The translations under genes and the position numbers were made by a program. A stretch of DNA of 64,000 nucleotides from Promethearchaeota archaeon. Its GTDB lineage: Archaea; Asgardarchaeota; Lokiarchaeia; Sigyniarchaeales; SOKP01. The DNA is taken from NCBI GenBank assembly GCA_029838195.1, contig JALGVJ010000002.1, positions 96,001-160,000 of the forward strand, in the 5' to 3' direction. Shown in pieces: positions 10,201 to 20,832 of this stretch; positions within the stretch are counted from its first letter, which is position 1; each line of letters begins with the position of its first letter. Below the pieces are notes generated by a model that saw nothing but the letters and a program-made list of their open reading frames with translations, had not been told where the DNA came from and made no database searches.

Positions 10201-10353
10201 TGTTCCGTGTGTGGAGCTGAACAAGAAATTCCACAGCATTGTGGAAAGCCCATGTATGTTGAAGGTGATCAATTAGTCTGCTGGATGGGAGCATCATGTG
10301 GAGCTCAACCCATACCAGAACATTGCGGAAAGAAAATGGAAATTGTCAACTAA
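7282..10353 (+). CDS. copA: Cu+-translocating P1B-type ATPase with C-terminal 2x YHS/TRASH and a Cys/His metal-binding tail
   Basis: GMTCASC, TGES, CPC, DKTGT, GDGIND, YN and MxxSS motifs; DPVCGM...YYFC twice. Confidence 0.95.
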
Positions 10354-10479
10354 TTGTTTATAATTTTTTAAAATCTTTTTTTTAATATATATCTATAAAA
10401 CTAAATTAAACCATTATTAGTCTTTTAGAAGTTCCTAATTGTTTGAAAATTAAAATAAATTAAATTAAGAAGAAAATAA

Positions 10480-12798
10480 TCACGTATTATATTTTTCTCG
10501 TTTTTTAATATAATTTTCAAAATGTCTTGAAAAAAGAGCGTGATTTGGAATGCGTGTTACTTCCTTTTTAAACTTTGGAAATTCTTTATTTAATAATGAA
10601 AGAATATTTTTCCAAGCCTTTTGATGTTCGGTTTTTGATCCAATTGATTTAGCCAAACAAGCCATGACATCTCTTGATTTTTGCCTCTTAAGATTCACTT
10701 GCATCACGTTAATAATTTTCTTTTTTAAATTCTTATAATCATCAGGTCTAAAACTTTCTAAAGAGAGAGCAAGAGAATCATCGGAAATCGGTATTATTTT
10801 AATGAGTTTATCTTCTTTAACATCTGCATTTGGAACTAATTCTAATTCAAAATCCTCCTTACTAATCCTTTCTAAAATGGGATATAAATCGCCCGGCGTA
10901 ATTTTAGTCTGTAATTCAATTTGAAAAGCAATATCGGAAATCGGAATGTAATAATTAGGATATTTTTCAGGATTCTCAATTCGAAAAATATATTCTTTCT
11001 TGATAATATCAAGAATTTGTTGTTTTATGGGCTCCGGAATCTTTCCTTCCTTAAAAGTGATTTTTTGGAACTTTAATTCTTTTGCTTTTTCTATTCTCTC
11101 TTCTTCTTGGAGTTTTTTTTTATAATTGGTCGAAAGGGAAGCTATAAATTGATCAGTTGCCTTATCGGCCTTTAAATCTGCCTTTAAACTCAATTCAGCA
11201 CGTCTTGGACGTGAAATGGAACGAATTAATTTGTCCGAGAGAAATTTTTGAGCTTTTTTTCGAGCAATATCTTTCTTTTCGAATTGTTCTGTGATTGAAA
11301 GAAAATCAATCATTAAAATAGACTTACCTCTTCCTTCTGATACCCGTTTTAATTCAATGTTTAAATCTTTTTGTGCGAGCCTTTTGATTAAAGATCGAAT
11401 GACTGCTTTCGATTGACGTGTTGTTTTCATTAATTGAAGTTCAATAGACTCTAAAGGAAAAGGTTCGCCTCTTCTAATATATTCATTTCTAATAAATTTA
11501 TAAATAATATCCATTGTCCTTTCCTCTTCATCTATGAGTTCTTTTTCCATTCTCAGGAACATGGATGTTTCATGAGGTTTCATGTAATAAAGTAAAAGCG
11601 TCAAACCCACAAAAATAATCATTATAATTGAGATAATATATTTATCAGCTAATAGAATTAAACCAAATCCGGAAATCTCTTGATTAGGAATATGAGTTGA
11701 TAAGGAATAGCGGGTGGTAGTTTGAGCAAAAATAGTAGATAACATGAATAAAATTAGTCCATCTTGTTTAAAGAATAAAATTTGCCATCCTAATGTTTTA
11801 CCCGTTTTATAAATCACGCGATATAAGAAAAACATGGAAACTCCGAATTCTAAAAAAAAAAAGAAGCTCGCGACACTCCCACTTGTTCCCAATACATTTT
11901 TTAGAGAATTTACGGTTTCAGGGCGTAATAACAAGTAAATCGTCAACTGCATTAGTTGGAAAAAGAATATGAAAAATACAATGAGGGAAAATGTAAAATT
12001 ATCAAAAATTCCTGCTCTACGCGTTTCTGCCCTTCTCCGAGTAAATACAAATTCTAAAGAAACAAAAATCATGGTAACAATCAAACTAAAATAGATTAGG
12101 GGCATGATGATTCTCATTTCCACATAATATACTAAAATTGCACCATGAGGATCCAAGGGAGCAAGGAAATCTAACGATAAATAGACCAGAAGAGCTCTAT
12201 AAAGCCAAGAAATAAATACCAATCCCGCTAAAATAAGAAATGGAGTAATTGTCACGATTAAATTTCTAAATACAGAATATTTTTTAATAATGCGTGCTTC
12301 AATTTCGGTTGAAAATCTCCTTGAATATATATAAAACCTACTGCTATAAATGAATAGCCAGATCATGGAAAATGTGAGTAAGAAGTAAGTTAGATTGAGT
12401 GAGGTCCCAATAACCCGTGCAAATAATAAAAAGAGAGGAATGAATATTCCAAGATACAAGCAAATTTGTTTTATTACAGTATTTTTCAGGAAAATAAATT
12501 CCCTAATTTGGTTGTTGCTATAGAGCAAAGAAAGTACTAAGTAAAAAATAATGAGGGAATTAGCAATGGCAAAGGGATTTCCAATTGTAAAAAATGATAT
12601 AATAACATTGTCGGGATTATTAATAGCAAATAATAATATAAAGGAATAAAATAGAAAGATGATATAAAGCCCTAAAAATTTTTTTTCAAAAGAAAAAGAC
12701 TTTGGAGGTTCTTGATTTTTTAAAAGTAAGGTATCTGGGAACAGAATTTTTTTTATCCTTTCCTTTAATTGACGTGGAGTAGTGTTCGTTTTTGACAT
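10480..12798 (-). CDS. Multi-pass membrane protein with large charged C-terminal soluble region, function unknown
   Basis: 772-aa ORF; about 10 TM segments in the first 410 aa. Confidence 0.7.
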   Translation of the reverse strand: MSKTNTTPRQLKERIKKILFPDTLLLKNQEPPKSFSFEKKFLGLYIIFLFYSFILLFAINNPDNVIISFFTIGNPFAIANSLIIFYLVLSLLYSNNQIREFIFLKNTVIKQICLYLGIFIPLFLLFARVIGTSLNLTYFLLTFSMIWLFIYSSRFYIYSRRFSTEIEARIIKKYSVFRNLIVTITPFLILAGLVFISWLYRALLVYLSLDFLAPLDPHGAILVYYVEMRIIMPLIYFSLIVTMIFVSLEFVFTRRRAETRRAGIFDNFTFSLIVFFIFFFQLMQLTIYLLLRPETVNSLKNVLGTSGSVASFFFFLEFGVSMFFLYRVIYKTGKTLGWQILFFKQDGLILFMLSTIFAQTTTRYSLSTHIPNQEISGFGLILLADKYIISIIMIIFVGLTLLLYYMKPHETSMFLRMEKELIDEEERTMDIIYKFIRNEYIRRGEPFPLESIELQLMKTTRQSKAVIRSLIKRLAQKDLNIELKRVSEGRGKSILMIDFLSITEQFEKKDIARKKAQKFLSDKLIRSISRPRRAELSLKADLKADKATDQFIASLSTNYKKKLQEEERIEKAKELKFQKITFKEGKIPEPIKQQILDIIKKEYIFRIENPEKYPNYYIPISDIAFQIELQTKITPGDLYPILERISKEDFELELVPNADVKEDKLIKIIPISDDSLALSLESFRPDDYKNLKKKIINVMQVNLKRQKSRDVMACLAKSIGSKTEHQKAWKNILSLLNKEFPKFKKEVTRIPNHALFSRHFENYIKKREKYNT

Positions 12799-13254: not shown

Positions 13255-13521
13255 ATGGATAAAGAGAAAGAAAACCTTCTTGAATTCATTAAAAAAGCCA
13301 TTGAATATTTGGCAGAAAATAACATCTCAGATGTTGTTATTCTCTCCTCTTATAAAATTGCCTCTGTATTAAAAGAAAATTATGGCGTAGATATCAAAAT
13401 TGATAGAATAGGACGAGTTCTAAGCAATGTTGCTAAAAATAATCAATTAAAGCGGTTACAAACCAACATTCCTAAATATCAGTTATATAAACAAAAAATC
13501 CATACGTTGCGGTATTTCTAA
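13255..13521 (+). CDS. Small basic protein, probable winged-helix DNA-binding fold
   Basis: 88 aa; SSYKIA...IDRIGRVL helix pattern followed by a beta hairpin. Confidence 0.55.
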   Translation: MDKEKENLLEFIKKAIEYLAENNISDVVILSSYKIASVLKENYGVDIKIDRIGRVLSNVAKNNQLKRLQTNIPKYQLYKQKIHTLRYF

Positions 13522-13560: not shown

Positions 13561-14907
13561 TCATGGTTTTTCCATTTGTTTAACCAAATCAGTGAGGGTT
13601 TTCAGGAGAGATTGAAAGGTGCTAACTTGATTTCTTAACGCATTAAATTTCTCAATAAATAGCTTATTCGTATCATCTATTTCTTGTTGATATTGTCCCA
13701 TGCTGGTATTAACATCTTGTTGAATTTTTGAAAAAATATCTTCCATCTCTTCCTTTATTTGATTTAATTTGCCTCTAAACTCCTCATATTTTTTTATGAT
13801 TTCTTTTGAAACAAAACTCGATATGTCTGAAGTGTTGGATAATCTCGAATCTAACTCTCTTAACGTTTCTATCACCTTGGAATAGTTGGAATTTAAATCC
13901 TTTTCCACGGTGTCAATGATCTCTTGTTTTGTTTTCTTTATGGCTTTTTCCCATTGATGTATCATGGTTTCATGTTCATCCTTATTCTCCATCAATTTTA
14001 AGAGAAATTCATTTAATTCTTGCTTAAATTGCTCTATTATCCATCCTTCTATTTTTTTTATCCCTCTTGAAATTCGCTTTTTCATGGATTCGGTCGTTTC
14101 TTTTAAATCATCCGCACCTTTAGTTGTACCTTCTTCAATGCGTTTTAGCCACGGATTGAAATTTGATTCAAAAGAGGCCGTGATGGAATTTGAGAGGGCG
14201 TTAAATGCTAATCTCATCCCATTAGATAAAAAAGGCTTTTCTGATTCAACATCTCCTTTTTCCCCCTCAATTAAAGCTGTTTTTGGAATTTCCTGTAATT
14301 CTCTCCCTGGAATGGGCTCTATCTCTCTTAATTCTTTTATAAATCTGGTATCATTGAACTCTCGAAGTTCGATTAATTCTTTAATCCATGTAAAATATTC
14401 TAAACTATCGGGTAATTCTATTTCCACATCCATTTCATGATATTGGAATGAATCCTTAGAATTTAGCCGGTCCATGCGAAACGCTTTTAGTTCTATCTTT
14501 TTATCCTCATTAAATAAAAGCGGATTGAAAATAATACAAAATCCAGTAGGATTACTCTCATTTTGAATTAATTGATGATTAGGTAAATCACTTTCATTAA
14601 ATTTTATTTGCTCTTGTAAGGAAGTGCGATACCATCCAAGAATGGATTGGTCTTCAGGTTTATATCGCTCATTAATTCGGAGCAGCAATTTTTCCTCAAA
14701 AGCAGGAATTTCTTCTGCCATTAATTCTACATGATCAAAAGGCACGCACTCATTTATGATAATTTTTTTTCCATTTTTTTCTTGGATTCCCAAGCAAAAA
14801 CCCACTACATTATATCTCTTTTCTAAGGCAGGACTTCCAAATCTAAGGGCATGACGAATCATTTGATGAAAGGCACGCCTCGTTAGTTTTATTAAAATGT
14901 TTTCCAT
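13561..14907 (-). CDS. Inactive MPN (MPN-) domain protein with long C-terminal coiled coil
   Basis: MIRHA...NVVGFCLG...GWYRTS...FNESD...IIFNP...AFR: MPN fold lacking the catalytic Glu and both His. Confidence 0.8.
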   Translation of the reverse strand: MENILIKLTRRAFHQMIRHALRFGSPALEKRYNVVGFCLGIQEKNGKKIIINECVPFDHVELMAEEIPAFEEKLLLRINERYKPEDQSILGWYRTSLQEQIKFNESDLPNHQLIQNESNPTGFCIIFNPLLFNEDKKIELKAFRMDRLNSKDSFQYHEMDVEIELPDSLEYFTWIKELIELREFNDTRFIKELREIEPIPGRELQEIPKTALIEGEKGDVESEKPFLSNGMRLAFNALSNSITASFESNFNPWLKRIEEGTTKGADDLKETTESMKKRISRGIKKIEGWIIEQFKQELNEFLLKLMENKDEHETMIHQWEKAIKKTKQEIIDTVEKDLNSNYSKVIETLRELDSRLSNTSDISSFVSKEIIKKYEEFRGKLNQIKEEMEDIFSKIQQDVNTSMGQYQQEIDDTNKLFIEKFNALRNQVSTFQSLLKTLTDLVKQMEKP

Positions 14908-16433
14908 TATTCTTTTTTACCTTCCGCTTCTTGTTTTTTGTTCAATTCTGAAGTTAATTGTTTAATTTTTTTTTCGGATTGCGTTAACTTGTCTACTAAT
15001 CTATTCTTTTCAGCTGTTAATGTATTAATCTCCCTTTTTAATTCGCCTAGCTCTTCTTCCTGCTTACGAATAATTCCTTCATTTTTTTCTTTAATTCCTT
15101 CTATTTGAGTTATCATGTCTTTTAATATCGAATTGTGATTTTCCATTTCTCCCAACAATTCACTAGCAAGTTGTTCCATTTCCTCCCGATTAGTTTCCAT
15201 CCATTCTTGAAAATGAGTTTCCTTCGCCTTAATGTTTTCCTCAAGATTCGATTTAAACATGAAAACCTTCTCTTTTAACGGTTGAGCGTAATTTTTATCC
15301 AAATCTTCCAATTTTATTTGTTCCTCCAATTCTCTTGAAATTTTCTCTATATTATTGTAGTTGTTTTTAAAATTTTCTACCAAACCTTCGAAAGGCTCGT
15401 GAAAAGCTGCTTTAAAAATAGTATCAATTTTCGATTTGATATCATTTTTTAACAAATTCAAGTCCTCTAACAAGATTGGCTCGTGTTCTTCCAGTAGTAT
15501 TTCTTGTTCCACCCAAATGCTATCTATTCCATCTAGCCCTTCCTTTATAGAATTTTTTATCATTTTCTGAATGGAATGCAAACCCTCTCTTATCGTCCTG
15601 GCGATTTCTTCTAAATTTTCTCTCATCATGAAATTGGTCTTGATAATCCTCCTGAGTAGCTCTTGACTCCATTCATTTAAATATTCCACGAAGGGTTTTA
15701 TAAAGCCCTTTATGAGTTCATTTAACCCATTCTTTAGATGCCCCAAAAACTCCTCGTAATTTATTGAAGGACGCCTTGATTTTAATTGCTCTCGTGAGGG
15801 TATAAAAATTTCTCCAATAAAATCAGGCACTTCTTTGAGTTCCAAAATAGGAGGTTGCTTTTCATGGATTGAATTCATTAGTTCGATGAGTTTAAGGTAA
15901 TATTTTTGCGAATCCGGGACCTCTATAATCGTCTTTACCTCGTGATATTTTGAATTTACTCCCTTCGAAGGATCATCTAACCGAAATGTTCGAAAGCCTA
16001 CATCGCCCGGTTTTTCCAAATATAAATGATCGAAAACAATTCCAATCGCACTTGGATTTCCACTCTGCCACCCCAATTGATTCCTTATATCCGTTCTGGA
16101 AAAAAATATGGTGAGCTCAGGATGAGAATGATACCAACCCACTCCAAATAAATTCTGTTTCGCATATTTCATGTCGATCGCTTCAAAAACAGAATAATCC
16201 TCGGGAGAAAAAGAAACCTCAATAGAGCTTCCGTGAGAAATGGGAACAGCATCCTCCACGATTACGTTTTTTGGTGTTCCTTCCCCCTCTAATCGCCCGA
16301 TTAAAACGCCCATGACTTCTCTCAAGCGATTTTTATCGCGTGACTTGTTTCCAAAACGGAGCACGTGCATGAGCATCTTATAATATGCTTTCGGTCTAAT
16401 TATCACGATTGAGTTATCTTTCACGCTCAACAC
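14907..16433 (-). CDS. JAMM/MPN+ metalloisopeptidase (Rpn11/CSN5-like) with long C-terminal coiled coil
   Basis: KMLMH...EVMGVLIG...GWYHSHPELTIFFSRTD: complete E-xn-HxH-x7-S-x2-D motif. Confidence 0.9.
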   Translation of the reverse strand: MLSVKDNSIVIIRPKAYYKMLMHVLRFGNKSRDKNRLREVMGVLIGRLEGEGTPKNVIVEDAVPISHGSSIEVSFSPEDYSVFEAIDMKYAKQNLFGVGWYHSHPELTIFFSRTDIRNQLGWQSGNPSAIGIVFDHLYLEKPGDVGFRTFRLDDPSKGVNSKYHEVKTIIEVPDSQKYYLKLIELMNSIHEKQPPILELKEVPDFIGEIFIPSREQLKSRRPSINYEEFLGHLKNGLNELIKGFIKPFVEYLNEWSQELLRRIIKTNFMMRENLEEIARTIREGLHSIQKMIKNSIKEGLDGIDSIWVEQEILLEEHEPILLEDLNLLKNDIKSKIDTIFKAAFHEPFEGLVENFKNNYNNIEKISRELEEQIKLEDLDKNYAQPLKEKVFMFKSNLEENIKAKETHFQEWMETNREEMEQLASELLGEMENHNSILKDMITQIEGIKEKNEGIIRKQEEELGELKREINTLTAEKNRLVDKLTQSEKKIKQLTSELNKKQEAEGKKE

Positions 16434-16561: not shown

Positions 16562-17245
16562 CTAATGGGGTAATTTTTTACCACAATAAGGACAATAGAT
16601 CCAATTCAAATTTCCTCCGCAATAGGGACAAAATCTAGACCCTTTATCTTTTTCTCCTTTTTTTGCTCCAGCAGGCCCGCTACTTGGAATGAAAGGAACA
16701 GTTTCTTGATCAGAACCCGAAGGTATGGAAGGAAGCGTGCGTGAAGTCTTAGTAGCGGGAGGTGCAGGCTCCGTAAAAGGAGGTTCTTGCTCGCGAGAAA
16801 ACAATACTCTTTGCTGAAATGCTTGCCTCTTTTCTTCTTCGGTTTTAGGTTTATCTATTACCGTTCCTTGGGTCGCGGGTCTTTTTAATTCGGATTCAGG
16901 TACTTTGTCCAATTTTATATGCTTGGTCTCTGATACGGGAGCAGACATTCGCATTTTGTCTTTTTTATCTAGGGCTTGTTTCAATAAGGCTTGTACAGTC
17001 TTCATTATGCCGTATGGATTTATATTGGGGAGCGTGACAGTCCTTAGAACCCATCCAACAATGATATTCGAGTTTGGTCTGTCACCCTCCACATCTTCAT
17101 CTTTAAACACGTAAGAATCGATGATATTTTTTCCTTTTAGAATTCTACCTGCCCATTTGCCATTAATTAATCCCAATTGTAAGAGATAAGAAGTTCCGGA
17201 GATTCCTAATGCCGTAGTTAACGGCTCAAATCCTAATTCTACCAT
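16562..17245 (-). CDS. Protein with globular N-terminus, Pro-rich linker and C-terminal double CxxC zinc ribbon
   Basis: CPYCGGNLNWIYCPYCG; EPPFTEPAPPA...LPSIPS. Confidence 0.75.
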   Translation of the reverse strand: MVELGFEPLTTALGISGTSYLLQLGLINGKWAGRILKGKNIIDSYVFKDEDVEGDRPNSNIIVGWVLRTVTLPNINPYGIMKTVQALLKQALDKKDKMRMSAPVSETKHIKLDKVPESELKRPATQGTVIDKPKTEEEKRQAFQQRVLFSREQEPPFTEPAPPATKTSRTLPSIPSGSDQETVPFIPSSGPAGAKKGEKDKGSRFCPYCGGNLNWIYCPYCGKKLPH

Positions 17246-17421: not shown

Positions 17422-18381
17422 ATGACCGTTATTATTCCTAAGGAAGTATATTTTACGATTGTTGCCGCGTGTGTTCGATTTGCCAATAAGAAGATTCCGA
17501 GAGAGCGGTGGTTAGAGGAGTGTGGAATTTTCATCGGAAAAAACGTGGGGAAAAAGAAAGACCAAGATGTGGTAATTACGGCGGCTTATCCTATCATGCA
17601 TGAAACGTATGATCCAAACGCAGTGGTCGATCGATATGTATGGTCCGATGAGGATTATATCTCTACGACGATGATTGAAGATGAGGCTTTTGCGCGAAAT
17701 GAATTCGTGGTAGGATGGTGGCATTCGCATCCGGGTTTCAAGGTAATGTTATCGGGTTTTGGGGATAGAAAAACCACGCTCTCCTATCAGAGCTTGAATC
17801 CTTTAGCCATTGCCTTGGTATTCAATCATGAGCGGTTGCTTCGTCAAATAGAGCTTCCCGGTAGGCAAGGGGATCCGGTGAAGCAATTAAAAAATGATCC
17901 TGGCTTCAAGATTTTTAGGTTAGAGGATCCTAATAATGAGAAGAGCAATACTATTGAAGTGAAGTATCGAATAGAAGGGTTTGAAAGTCCGGAACAAATG
18001 GTCTTGGAGGCTCAGAAGCTCATTATAGATATCACTAACTTTTTTCCCCCGGATAATCTCGTGGAGTTTTATAGTAATTACATTAATGGACGGATCAGTA
18101 AATTAAATTCTCAATTATTGGGCACGGAGGAATATTTGAGGACATTACTTCGTAAGGGGGAGGGACATCGCGTTTCTGAGGTATTGGAGCAGCAAAAGAA
18201 GGACATTCAAAAATACGTGGCAGAAACGTTTCTTCAGATTGAAAAAATTAAGAGTTTCATGAACTATCTCGAATATAAAGAGAGGACGAGGGTAATTCCG
18301 GCGATTGAAGATATTTTGCACCTTTGGGATGAAACCATTGGCGGCTTGGATGAAAAATTAGCGGAGCTTTCCCGGATTTAA
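17422..18381 (+). CDS. JAMM/MPN domain protein (Rpn11-like) with helical C-terminus
   Basis: EECGIFIG...GWWHSHPGFKVMLSGFGD. Confidence 0.85.
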   Translation: MTVIIPKEVYFTIVAACVRFANKKIPRERWLEECGIFIGKNVGKKKDQDVVITAAYPIMHETYDPNAVVDRYVWSDEDYISTTMIEDEAFARNEFVVGWWHSHPGFKVMLSGFGDRKTTLSYQSLNPLAIALVFNHERLLRQIELPGRQGDPVKQLKNDPGFKIFRLEDPNNEKSNTIEVKYRIEGFESPEQMVLEAQKLIIDITNFFPPDNLVEFYSNYINGRISKLNSQLLGTEEYLRTLLRKGEGHRVSEVLEQQKKDIQKYVAETFLQIEKIKSFMNYLEYKERTRVIPAIEDILHLWDETIGGLDEKLAELSRI

Positions 18382-18627: not shown

Positions 18628-20832
18628 ATGAAGAGGATAAATTTTCCGTTTACAGCGATAATTGGACAAGATAAAATGAAGATAGCTTTAATTTTGAACG
18701 TGCTGGATCCGTTAATTGGAGGTGTTCTTCTTACGGGGCATCAAGGAACTGGAAAATCTACTGCTGTCCGATCTTTAGTGGATATAATGCCAAAAATAGA
18801 AGTGGTGAAAGATTGTCCCTTTTCTTGTGATCCTAATTCGAATTTAGATGAGCTCTGTGATGAGTGTAGAGAGAAAAAGGAAAAGGGAATCTTGGAAACC
18901 GAATGGAGAGAAATGGAATTAGTGAATCTTCCTTTAGGATGTACTGAAGATATGGTTTGCGGCTCTCTCTCAATTGACAAGGTGCTCACGAAAGGGGTTT
19001 CGGAGCTTCATCCGGGATTATTGGCAAAAGCAAATCGAGGAATCCTTTATATAGATGAGATCAATTTGCTTCAAGATCACATAGTGGATACACTTTTAGA
19101 TTCCGCTGCTTCGGGGGTAAATATTATTGAACGAGAAGGAATTTCGGTTATTCATCCTGCCCGATTCGTTTTGGTTGGAAGTATGAACCCTGAGGAAGGT
19201 GAATTACGTCCGCAAATAGCAGATCGCTTGGGATTAGAAGTAAAAATCGTTTCTCCTCGAAATCCGAAAATTAGAGCAGAAATTACAAAGAGGGTCATTG
19301 AATTTAATGACAATCCAAAAGAATTTATCAAGCAATTCGAAAAAGAACAAAAAGATTTAAAAGAGAGAATAATCCGGGCTCGTAAAATAATCAAGGAGGT
19401 TGAAATTCCAACTGCTGTCTACGAATTAGTTTCGAAAATTGTAGATGAATTAGAGATTTATTCGCAACGTGCGGATATCACTTTCATTCGGTGTGCGCGA
19501 GCTCATGCAGCATTCAATGGAAGAAAAAAAATTAATCAAGAGGATATTAACGTTGCCATGGATTTAGTTTTTGAACACCGAATTAAATCCCTTCATTATG
19601 AAATGACCCCTCAAGAGATTGAAGCAAAAATCACCGAGGTATATGGCAAAATAAGAGAAGCCATAGAAGATTTAAACGTTTACCAACCAAATAAGGAAAC
19701 AGAAGGCCCTTTAAAGCATACAGACGAACCGCAAAAAGAATTTCAGAGACAACCCATCGATCCGGATAAAGTTGACATACCTGAAACGAGAGAACAAAAA
19801 TTACCTCCTCCAAAGTATCCCGATAAAAAAGAAAGAGAAGCTAAACCAGCAGGGGGATGGAAAGTTAAGAATATTCCGAAGTACAAGGAGGATCTAAATT
19901 TTTTCGAAAATAAGATGGACGCACTTCCTTTAATTTATAATATGGAAAAACGCATGACCTCTATATTAAATAATTTAAGGAAAGACAGGAAGATTTCTAA
20001 TTATGGAGGTAGGGGCATAGGTAGGAGAATAAAGATGGTCTCTTCCCGGAAAGGCAGATACGTTTCTTATAGAATTCCAATTAATCATCAACCGAAATCG
20101 TTAGCCTTGGACGCAACCATTCGAACATTCTTTAAAAATCAAGTCTATAATCATACGAAAATCGATTTTCCCATTAAATTCGAAGAAAACGACTTGAGAG
20201 ATAAAATCTTTGAATATCGAGCACCCTTAGCTCTATTTTTTGTATTAGATAGTTCTGCCTCCATGTATTATGTCATCAAACAGATGACGGATGTCATTCT
20301 CTCCCTCCAAAAAGAAGGGTACAGAAAGCGTGATAAAATCGCATTAATCATATTTCGAGGTAAAGATGCAATAGTTTTACAAAAACCCACCGTCTCGTTT
20401 CAAAATGCGCTGCGCAAATTAAAAAACATTAAAGGAAAATCCTACACGCCAATGGCTGCAGGTTTAAATGAATGCCTCAAGCTCATTAAAATTGAGAAAT
20501 TGAAGAACCGAAACATCATTCCGGTAATTTTTATTTGTTCTGATTGTGGAGCTAACATCTCCGTTAAATATCCGGATCTCGTAGCCCAGGTAGAATCTGA
20601 TTACACTTTAATCGTGGAAGAATTAAATGACATCGCAAAAAAAATCGCAAAACACCGCATTCATTTAATTGTATTGGAACCAAAAAAATCCCAAGCCACG
20701 AGAGCTCTTGGAGTTCATCCTTACTCTGCAGAAATGATAAAAAAGAATTTTAAAAAACACGGAGCCGATATCTATCAATTTGACAGATATAATCCCTCTT
20801 CGCTTATTTTGGAACTTAAGAAAATCTTATGA
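18628..20832 (+). CDS. ChlI/ChlD-like chelatase subunit (AAA+ fused to vWA)
   Basis: FPFTAIIGQ, GHQGTGKST, PGLLAKANRGILYIDE, GSMNPEEGELRPQ, Pro-rich linker, MIDAS DSSAS. Confidence 0.9.
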   Translation: MKRINFPFTAIIGQDKMKIALILNVLDPLIGGVLLTGHQGTGKSTAVRSLVDIMPKIEVVKDCPFSCDPNSNLDELCDECREKKEKGILETEWREMELVNLPLGCTEDMVCGSLSIDKVLTKGVSELHPGLLAKANRGILYIDEINLLQDHIVDTLLDSAASGVNIIEREGISVIHPARFVLVGSMNPEEGELRPQIADRLGLEVKIVSPRNPKIRAEITKRVIEFNDNPKEFIKQFEKEQKDLKERIIRARKIIKEVEIPTAVYELVSKIVDELEIYSQRADITFIRCARAHAAFNGRKKINQEDINVAMDLVFEHRIKSLHYEMTPQEIEAKITEVYGKIREAIEDLNVYQPNKETEGPLKHTDEPQKEFQRQPIDPDKVDIPETREQKLPPPKYPDKKEREAKPAGGWKVKNIPKYKEDLNFFENKMDALPLIYNMEKRMTSILNNLRKDRKISNYGGRGIGRRIKMVSSRKGRYVSYRIPINHQPKSLALDATIRTFFKNQVYNHTKIDFPIKFEENDLRDKIFEYRAPLALFFVLDSSASMYYVIKQMTDVILSLQKEGYRKRDKIALIIFRGKDAIVLQKPTVSFQNALRKLKNIKGKSYTPMAAGLNECLKLIKIEKLKNRNIIPVIFICSDCGANISVKYPDLVAQVESDYTLIVEELNDIAKKIAKHRIHLIVLEPKKSQATRALGVHPYSAEMIKKNFKKHGADIYQFDRYNPSSLILELKKIL

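Follow-up and report, generated by a model that had tools for sequence, protein, structure and literature searches.

A tandem pair of intact and degenerate MPN genes with long helical tails in a Promethearchaeota genome, a candidate archaeal enzyme/partner heterodimer

The proteasome lid, the COP9 signalosome, eIF3 and the BRISC/BRCA1-A complexes all have at their catalytic core a dimer of an active MPN enzyme and its dead twin. A pair of adjacent MPN genes in a Promethearchaeota genome, the first with the catalytic JAMM motif and the second without it, raises the question of whether an archaeon makes a dimer of this type and, if it does, whether this dimer shares its origin with the eukaryotic ones. 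The pair lies in a stretch of 64,000 nucleotides (positions 96,001 to 160,000 of contig JALGVJ010000002.1, assembly GCA_029838195.1), called here the window, which corresponds to contig C72 of a 4.5-Mb assembly that is 96.6% complete. An initial annotation of the window, made from its letters only, had assigned the DNA to an Asgard archaeon, in agreement with the names of the related records (Promethearchaeota, Loki lineage). The two open reading frames (ORFs), hereafter UP for the upstream and DN for the downstream gene, are arranged head to tail, both on the minus strand. Their features, with lengths in amino acids (aa) and the evidence in brackets, are the following:

14907..16433, minus strand: UP, encoding an MPN+ protein of 508 aa from a GTG start (ORF, Pfam JAB match, AlphaFold2 model)
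13561..14907, minus strand: DN, encoding a catalytically dead MPN protein of 448 aa (ORF, Pfam JAB match, motif positions, ratio of nonsynonymous to synonymous substitution rates or dN/dS)
14905..14909, minus strand: TAATG stop/start overlap that joins UP and DN (sequence)
16317-16319, minus strand: codon of the general base of UP, E39 (sequence)
16089..16130, minus strand: codons of H102-S-H104-x7-S112-x2-D115 of UP, the zinc and oxyanion part of the JAMM motif (sequence)
15858..15941, minus strand: UP residues ~165-192, comprising the conserved linker (V166, P173, Y179) and the post-MPN helix (predicted interface residues, conservation)
14910..15707, minus strand: helical tail of UP, a 195-aa core followed by a variable C-terminal coiled-coil extension (ortholog lengths, profile search)
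13564..14232, minus strand: helical tail of DN, 223 aa (ortholog lengths, hhalign alignment with the UP tail)

UP carries the full canonical JAMM motif, EVMG ... GWYHSHPELTIFFSRTD, with E39, H102, H104, S112 and D115 all in place, and has the MPN fold of the JAMM/MPN+ metalloisopeptidases. At the corresponding sites DN reads NVVG ... GWYRTS ... FNESD, with replacements at the Glu, at both His and at the Ser. Because its five motif positions read N33, R94, S96, N104 and D107, DN is not an MPN+ enzyme in this genome; it is an MPN fold without metal ligands, as in the MPN- pseudoenzyme partners of the Rpn8, CSN6, eIF3f and Abraxas/ABRO1 type. Both proteins match the eukaryote-type JAB/MPN model of Pfam, PF01398 (1.8e-13 for UP and 2.2e-6, over the cut-off, for DN), and each scores better on this model than on Prok-JAB. 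UP and DN align with each other in BLASTP at 24% identity over 387 aa (E 6e-25), and the alignment covers a common YHE..PDS..Y linker past the MPN core.

The relationship between the two proteins extends beyond the MPN domain. The layout of UP comprises an MPN domain (aa 1-192), a low-confidence linker (aa 193-244) and a helical tail (aa 245-508); that of DN comprises an MPN domain (aa 1-189) and a tail (aa about 226-448). The AlphaFold2 model of UP, built with 24 orthologs in the alignment (mean predicted local distance difference test or pLDDT, 74.6), places the MPN domain at residues 1-190, a low-confidence segment at 193-244 and two very long helices of ~130 residues each at 245-376 and 384-507. 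UP and DN tails are not significantly similar by pairwise BLAST alone (E 0.38), but when compared profile to profile with hhalign they align over 194 columns (98.7%, E 2.3e-16). The homology of the tails means that the entire gene was duplicated, and UP and DN are, as judged from these alignments, full-length paralogs in MPN domain, linker and helical tail. The tails also have a constrained length: the core of the UP tail measures exactly 195 aa in 19 of 23 orthologs, behind which the C-terminal coiled-coil extension varies from 10 to 140 aa (71 aa here), and the DN tail measures 222-226 aa in most orthologs (223 aa here). At 14-28% identity the tail cores have almost no insertions or deletions. 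Cores of fixed length are what a paired, in-register stalk would demand; they suggest such a stalk, short of proof. When a profile of the UP tail was run against 1.84 billion representatives, it recovered the family itself, always behind MPN domains (full-length matches in which the tail begins near residue 245, and shorter fragments), and then generic long coiled coils; the UP tail is thus not a module found elsewhere. Comparison of the tails with solved structures by VIA-align returned generic coiled coils only (Z ~8), and in Pfam and NCBIfam the tails matched nothing above threshold, the weaker matches being to generic helical models.

The MPN domain of UP is of the eukaryotic type. Its nearest solved structure in VIA-align is Rpn11 (4o8x_B, Z 18.0, root-mean-square deviation 2.8 over 158 residues), followed by CsRpn11 (Z 17.0), CSN5 and BRCC36 (5cw3_A; 16.1 each) and Rpn8 (14.8), and Foldseek puts BRCC36 (6gvw_B, E 8e-14) and Rpn11 on top. 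By sequence, the closest solved proteins are CsRpn11 (1.1e-9, the best match in the PDB), Rpn11, BRCC36, CSN5 and AMSH; a PDB search with the DN sequence gave no match. The initial annotation had described a full JAMM motif in the upstream gene, the loss of the Glu and both His from its paralog, a TAATG overlap, a shared post-MPN linker, long helical tails on both proteins and a MPN fold of the eukaryotic type, and each of these points is borne out by the data above, the Ser being a further loss.

We then asked how widely the pair is conserved. DN used as a query found a match in 39 of 41 related genomes, including all 24 of the family, and a profile of the DN family gave full-length matches in all 25 family genomes searched. 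In the rest of the phylum, sampled with 150 genomes, the matches listed for this profile cover little beyond the MPN domain, and no tail-bearing relative from outside the order was found in this sample. The tandem pair is also present in some sister families. The UP-then-DN order is kept in 26 of 27 related loci, in which the ORF ends lie -35 to +17 nt apart (by ORF coordinates), so that the tandem, coupled arrangement first read from the window is a conserved one. Present in every family genome searched, the arrangement is far beyond chance. In more distant families the pair alone is constant and the neighbours change. A word-based homolog search with DN returned 3 proteins only, because the family diverges too fast to share 5-mers, and a search for related loci with the single UP sequence returned none, whereas an alignment used as the query did recover them. 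Scans of the DNA for sigma-70 promoters and terminators found sites no more frequent than in shuffled sequence, with models that are not applicable to archaea.

To address whether the two products could pair, both full-length chains were submitted to complex prediction with genome-matched alignments and three controls. The UP-DN complex reached a score (ipSAE) of 0.66, the best of the three controls 0.00. The mark applied to this score is reached by 58 of 80 solved complexes and by 2 of 110 mismatched pairs, counts that are only rough here because custom alignments were used. The UP-DN runs agreed in at least 38% of their contacts, with a partner pLDDT of at least 61. The confident interface comprises residues 14-32 (helix 1), loop residues 139-145 and residues 170-195 of UP, and residues 13-28, 129-138 and 163-189 of DN. 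In the model each helix 1 packs against the post-MPN helix of the other chain, and equivalent residues touch along linker and helix (UP 173, 182 and 186 with DN 166, 174 and 178). The linker that is conserved in both proteins falls inside the confident interface and is thus the predicted docking surface. The conservation of DN gives independent support: positions in its predicted interface score higher than the remainder of its MPN region (0.617 vs 0.553; Mann-Whitney p 0.018), and its former catalytic positions are conserved no better than the background (0.61 vs 0.55). E180 of DN, invariant in 24/24 DN orthologs, meets the invariant residues L25/R26 of UP, and the UP position equivalent to E180 is variable. 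The complex model supports UP-DN binding, as proposed in the initial annotation, but does not show it.

The origin of the pair was addressed with trees of the MPN region, rooted on MPN3, a third MPN+ paralog, which is transcribed divergently from the pair in the window. UP orthologs form one clade (SH-aLRT 97-99), DN orthologs form one clade (95, two very long branches left out), and UP and DN together form one clade (92-96). In a second family of the same order, here f4 (L135-L138), a single MPN+ gene without an adjacent paralog encodes a protein of 670-685 aa in which the JAMM motif is intact, the linker is like that of UP and the tail is longer still. Because these single-copy genes branch outside UP and DN, one tandem duplication inside the order is the simplest reading, and the f4 genes look like the unduplicated state. 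Since the duplication was local, the pair is an analogue of Rpn11/Rpn8 or BRCC36/Abraxas and not their ancestor; DN came out as the sister of UP, in a tree without eukaryotic sequences, and common descent with the eukaryotic MPN- families was not found. The term archaeal counterpart of the MPN+/MPN- heterodimers, used in the initial annotation, therefore holds in the sense of an analogue but not in that of shared descent.

After the duplication the two copies evolved differently. UP orthologs are 31-43% and DN orthologs 15-34% identical to the protein of the window, and the end branch of the window's DN measures 0.97 vs 0.26 for UP. All five catalytic residues of UP are invariant in 24/24 orthologs. 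Most genome pairs are saturated for dN/dS (dS >1); the values were therefore taken from an 80%-identical relative, at dS 0.30. They amount to 0.17 overall and 0.08 in the MPN domain for UP, and to 0.33 overall and 0.19 in the dead MPN domain for DN. The DN ORF is full-length and intact in all 27 orthologs. DN is thus not a dying gene and is still under purifying selection. The state of its motif requires at least 5-6 changes on the tree and differs even among genomes of one genus. The HxH motif, taken in the initial annotation as lost from the second gene, is indeed absent from the DN of this genome, but both His are kept in 13/27 DN orthologs and, as the whole motif is kept in 6/27, the pseudo state is not family-wide. 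On this sequence evidence, that state is lineage-specific, acquired several times and not fixed in the family.

Taken together, these data lead us to favour, at slightly better than an even chance, a reading in which UP and DN are an enzyme and its partner in a heterodimer. UP and DN would be made together and form a heterodimer of paralogs, in which UP is most likely, to judge by its motif and relatives, a eukaryote-like JAMM/MPN+ zinc isopeptidase for a ubiquitin-like protein. The substrate would be one of the ubiquitin-like proteins of the genome, as a conjugate or as a precursor. DN would be the sister copy, now without catalysis and serving the enzyme as a structural or regulatory subunit. 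In the prediction the MPN domains dock via helix 1 and the post-MPN linker and helix, in an H1/H4 four-helix-type interface; the homologous tails, with their ~195-residue cores, probably lie alongside each other and form a stalk. The pair goes back to a single long-tailed MPN+ gene and a tandem duplication within one Lokiarchaeial order, after which DN evolved faster and lost its catalytic residues repeatedly in separate genera. The data show directly how the genes are built, that they are paralogs, and how they are conserved, selected and related by descent; the heterodimer, which comes from prediction only, the isopeptidase activity and the substrate are inferred.

Several observations weigh against this reading. 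(i) The score of the complex may stem from resemblance to known structures, because MPN+/MPN- heterodimers have already been solved, and close cousins of the true partner pass the complex test too. (ii) An interface that pairs equivalent residues in register would, according to the model, suit UP-UP and DN-DN homodimers as well. (iii) The tails of UP and DN touch with low confidence only in the complex model. (iv) The DN motif is degenerate in 19/27 orthologs, the remainder being the six with the full motif and 2 more with a Ser-to-Thr change; in the lineages with the full motif, about a quarter of the orthologs, the partner may still be an enzyme. (v) In G017, the sole exception to the tandem arrangement (L032 6820-12865), ~6 kb separate UP and DN, a spacer filled by four unrelated ORFs that include a hexapeptide-repeat transferase and a protein with a weak Arf-family match. 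(vi) No E1, E2 or ubiquitin gene adjoins the pair, and the substrate is for this reason a guess.

In an alternative that we consider unlikely, UP and DN would act apart, each as a homodimer held by the same H1/H4 surface and by its own tail, with DN as an independent non-catalytic binder of ubiquitin or a ubiquitin-like protein or, where a genus has kept the motif, as a second enzyme of different specificity. Homodimers are sterically plausible given the pairing of equivalent residues; the archaeal deubiquitinase CsRpn11 crystallises as a parallel H1/H4 homodimer (PMC6043591), and the single-copy f4 protein must work alone or as a homodimer. Separate roles would also suit the 6-8 of 27 DN orthologs with a full or near-full motif and the gap in G017. 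However, gene order and near-zero spacing are kept in the other 26 loci, down to ~20% identity, and DN-specific invariant residues such as E180 face invariant residues of UP. A partner subunit would be expected to lose catalysis repeatedly and yet remain under purifying selection, as DN has done, and the heterodimer prediction passes where its controls do not.

In another alternative the pair would be a heterodimer that works outside the ubiquitin system, as a JAMM peptidase with another substrate or mainly as a scaffold like eIF3f/h or the MPN domain of Prp8. The genomic context bears on this possibility. Genes of the ubiquitin system are found elsewhere in the genome, at the following places:

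L006 4259-8542 (contig C26): classical operon of ubiquitin, E1, E2, JAMM and membrane-RING genes, with its own small JAMM
C8:1708-1965 and C87:2016-2435: two further ubiquitin-family genes outside the operon, one ending in GG plus two residues and the other in GG

The operon encodes a ubiquitin-like protein of 118 aa, an E1 of 407 aa, an E2 of 175 aa, the small JAMM of 265 aa and a membrane protein of 389 aa with a Cys-rich C-terminus. With the two genes outside it, the genome has three ubiquitin-family genes, and the product with two residues past its GG would need C-terminal processing. A canonical ubiquitin operon that owns a JAMM, the lack of ubiquitin, E1 and E2 genes beside the pair, and conserved neighbours of other kinds (a membrane protein, an 88-aa protein, a zinc-ribbon protein and a chelatase-like AAA+/vWA protein) would fit a role outside the ubiquitin system, and the long stalks suggest a structural function. 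We nevertheless hold such a role to be rather improbable. The invariance of the UP motif argues for catalysis, the closest relatives of UP (CsRpn11, Rpn11, BRCC36, CSN5, AMSH) are all isopeptidases of ubiquitin or ubiquitin-like proteins, and the three ubiquitin-like genes are accompanied by at least 5 MPN paralogs in the genome, a number found per genome in this lineage.

Two further alternatives fare worse. A mobile defence or conflict system with a JAB protease, such as CBASS Cap3 or the Bub type, is very improbable: JAB proteases are known in bacterial systems of this sort, Cap3 (Z 12.3) and BubCD (Z 9.8) appear lower among the structural matches and an AAA+/vWA gene lies nearby, but the latter is adjacent in part of the genomes only, the pair is inherited vertically (same-genus genomes are sisters in the tree) within a syntenic core that is stable in every family genome, its base composition does not stand out within the window, genes for a partner E1/E2 or a CD-NTase are lacking and PF01398 outscores Prok-JAB. 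That DN is a duplicate without a function of its own, on its way to becoming a pseudogene, is hardly credible: its evolution 2-4 times faster than that of UP and its degenerated catalytic residues would suit decay, but the 27 intact ORFs, the dN/dS values at unsaturated dS, the fixed tail length and the conserved interface residues all oppose it.

Compared with known systems, the pair is nearest in architecture to BRCC36-Abraxas and BRCC36-KIAA0157 (ABRO1), the core of BRCA1-A and BRISC. Here as there, an MPN+ enzyme is matched with an MPN- partner and a C-terminal helical or coiled-coil region follows each MPN domain; in BRCC36-Abraxas this region takes part in the pairing. In contrast, the archaeal tails are far longer (~220-310 aa) and are found only in this archaeal family, the archaeal pair arose by duplication inside one Lokiarchaeial order, and some genera retain an intact motif in its otherwise inactive partner. 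By MPN fold, the closest systems are Rpn11-Rpn8 of the 26S proteasome lid and, likewise a pair of active and inactive MPN paralogs, CSN5-CSN6 of the COP9 signalosome. The first helix and the post-core helix are the surfaces named for the Rpn8, CSN6 and Rpn11/Rpn8 dimers (PMC4140821), and the predicted UP-DN interface uses these same helices. However, the archaeal pair is not orthologous to Rpn11-Rpn8 or CSN5-CSN6, and no PCI partners were found in its own genome. Its in-register helices are nearer to the parallel CsRpn11 homodimer than to the antiparallel Rpn8-Rpn11 dimer (PMC6043591).

CsRpn11 of Caldiarchaeum subterraneum (PDB 6fju/6fjv) is an Rpn11-like deubiquitinase that processes the ubiquitin precursor (PMC6043591). 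It resembles UP as an archaeal, eukaryote-like JAMM, and is the best PDB match to UP by sequence. Unlike UP and DN, it is a single protein of ~200 aa, encoded beside a ubiquitin operon, with neither an inactive paralog nor a long tail. The MPN+/MPN- heterodimer organisation was stated in 2018 not to be known in archaea (PMC6043591), and a full-text literature search found no description of an archaeal MPN+/MPN- pair of this kind. As far as can be inferred, the pair works like the eukaryotic MPN+/MPN- systems without common descent, with tails that are unique to it and an inactive state that is not fixed.

A close archaeal relative of eukaryotes thus appears to have built the MPN+/MPN- design independently. 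Extant genera show the unduplicated gene (f4), pairs with both sites intact, losses of single residues and fully dead partners, and these intermediate states make the birth of a pseudoenzyme subunit directly testable. They also carry a warning, that eukaryote-like features in Asgard genomes need not be ancestral to the eukaryotic ones. The pair would add a stalked, probably ubiquitin-related machine to a lineage with several ubiquitin-like genes and MPN paralogs. A more ambitious proposal, which we regard as distinctly doubtful, is that a larger stalked deubiquitinase assembly, specific to Asgard archaea, is built around the pair as its catalytic core and edits ubiquitin at a membrane, as BRISC or AMSH do in eukaryotes. 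The double stalk would then set the MPN heads at a fixed distance from a platform, perhaps the 772-aa membrane protein encoded nearby. If this proposal were true, each stage in the change from a dimer of two enzymes to one of enzyme and pseudoenzyme would survive in present-day genera.

A complex of the lid or COP9 signalosome type finds no support as a context for the pair: no credible PCI-type partners were found. A search of the genome itself with PF01399 gave only weak matches at the level of a winged helix, and the same search rings in control prokaryotes; PF13012, the C-terminal domain of the Rpn8/Rpn11 type (MitMem_reg), gave no match in the pair and one sub-threshold match elsewhere. 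A 791-aa ORF (C54:57846-58373, minus) has two weak matches to the winged-helix part of PCI, the best at 1e-7. Among the other MPN paralogs, a 525-aa JAMM+ protein (L005 6837-8414, contig C7) has a helical C-terminal half that looks TPR-like by eye; its gene adjoins that of a 187-aa protein with two Cys-x2-Cys...His motifs, and a paralog of ~530 aa is present in most family genomes.

The genes that surround the pair in the window are the following:

10480..12798, minus strand: 772-aa protein with ~10 predicted transmembrane helices (hydropathy, synteny)
13255..13521, plus strand: 88-aa protein under strong purifying selection (synteny, dN/dS 0.04)
16562..17245, minus strand: 227-aa zinc-ribbon protein, with a conserved N-terminal domain of unknown fold and a C-terminal zinc ribbon (sub-threshold Pfam zinc-ribbon matches, synteny)
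17422..18381, plus strand: MPN3, the third MPN+ paralog, 319 aa, transcribed divergently and the outgroup to the pair (Pfam, trees)
18628-20832, plus strand: fused ChlI/ChlD-like AAA+ plus vWA protein (TIGR02442)

The wider gene order that recurs within the family begins with the 772-aa membrane protein and continues with the 88-aa protein, DN, UP, the 227-aa zinc-ribbon protein and the divergently transcribed MPN3, often with the chelatase-like AAA+/vWA gene past it. The 772-aa and 88-aa genes are syntenic with the pair throughout, and a homolog of the membrane protein lies near the pair in the genome of another family (L047). This protein has a 360-aa cytosolic half without a family match; Pfam and NCBIfam scans of this half and of the N-terminal domain of the zinc-ribbon protein gave only sub-threshold generic helical matches. 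The 88-aa protein has a weak match to DUF3867, and its gene shares a 456-bp divergent region with the membrane-protein gene.

The zinc-ribbon gene was considered as part of the operon of the pair and rejected. The cultured Promethearchaeum syntrophicum MK-D1 (NZ_CP042905; L139 3160-5007) is without the UP/DN pair, and in it a 244-aa homolog of the zinc-ribbon protein divergently adjoins a 324-aa homolog of MPN3. Because MK-D1 keeps this gene beside MPN3 without any pair, it was assigned to MPN3, and it probably belongs with MPN3 rather than with UP and DN. An atlas search with the 227-aa protein recovered its own Promethearchaeota cluster only, and its AlphaFold2 model (mean pLDDT 54) was unusable. 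The AAA+/vWA protein matches TIGR02442, a putative cobaltochelatase, at 3e-177, under the curated cut-off, and no large subunit of the CobN/ChlH type is visible near its gene; as this gene adjoins MPN3 in only part of the genomes, it was discarded as an obligate member of the cluster. MPN3 itself has a one-residue insertion in its JAMM motif (S-x3-D) only in this genome and a same-genus relative, the other aligned full-length orthologs having the canonical S-x2-D, and in G020 (L028) it is split right at the motif into two ORFs, 10239-10589 and 10600-11238.

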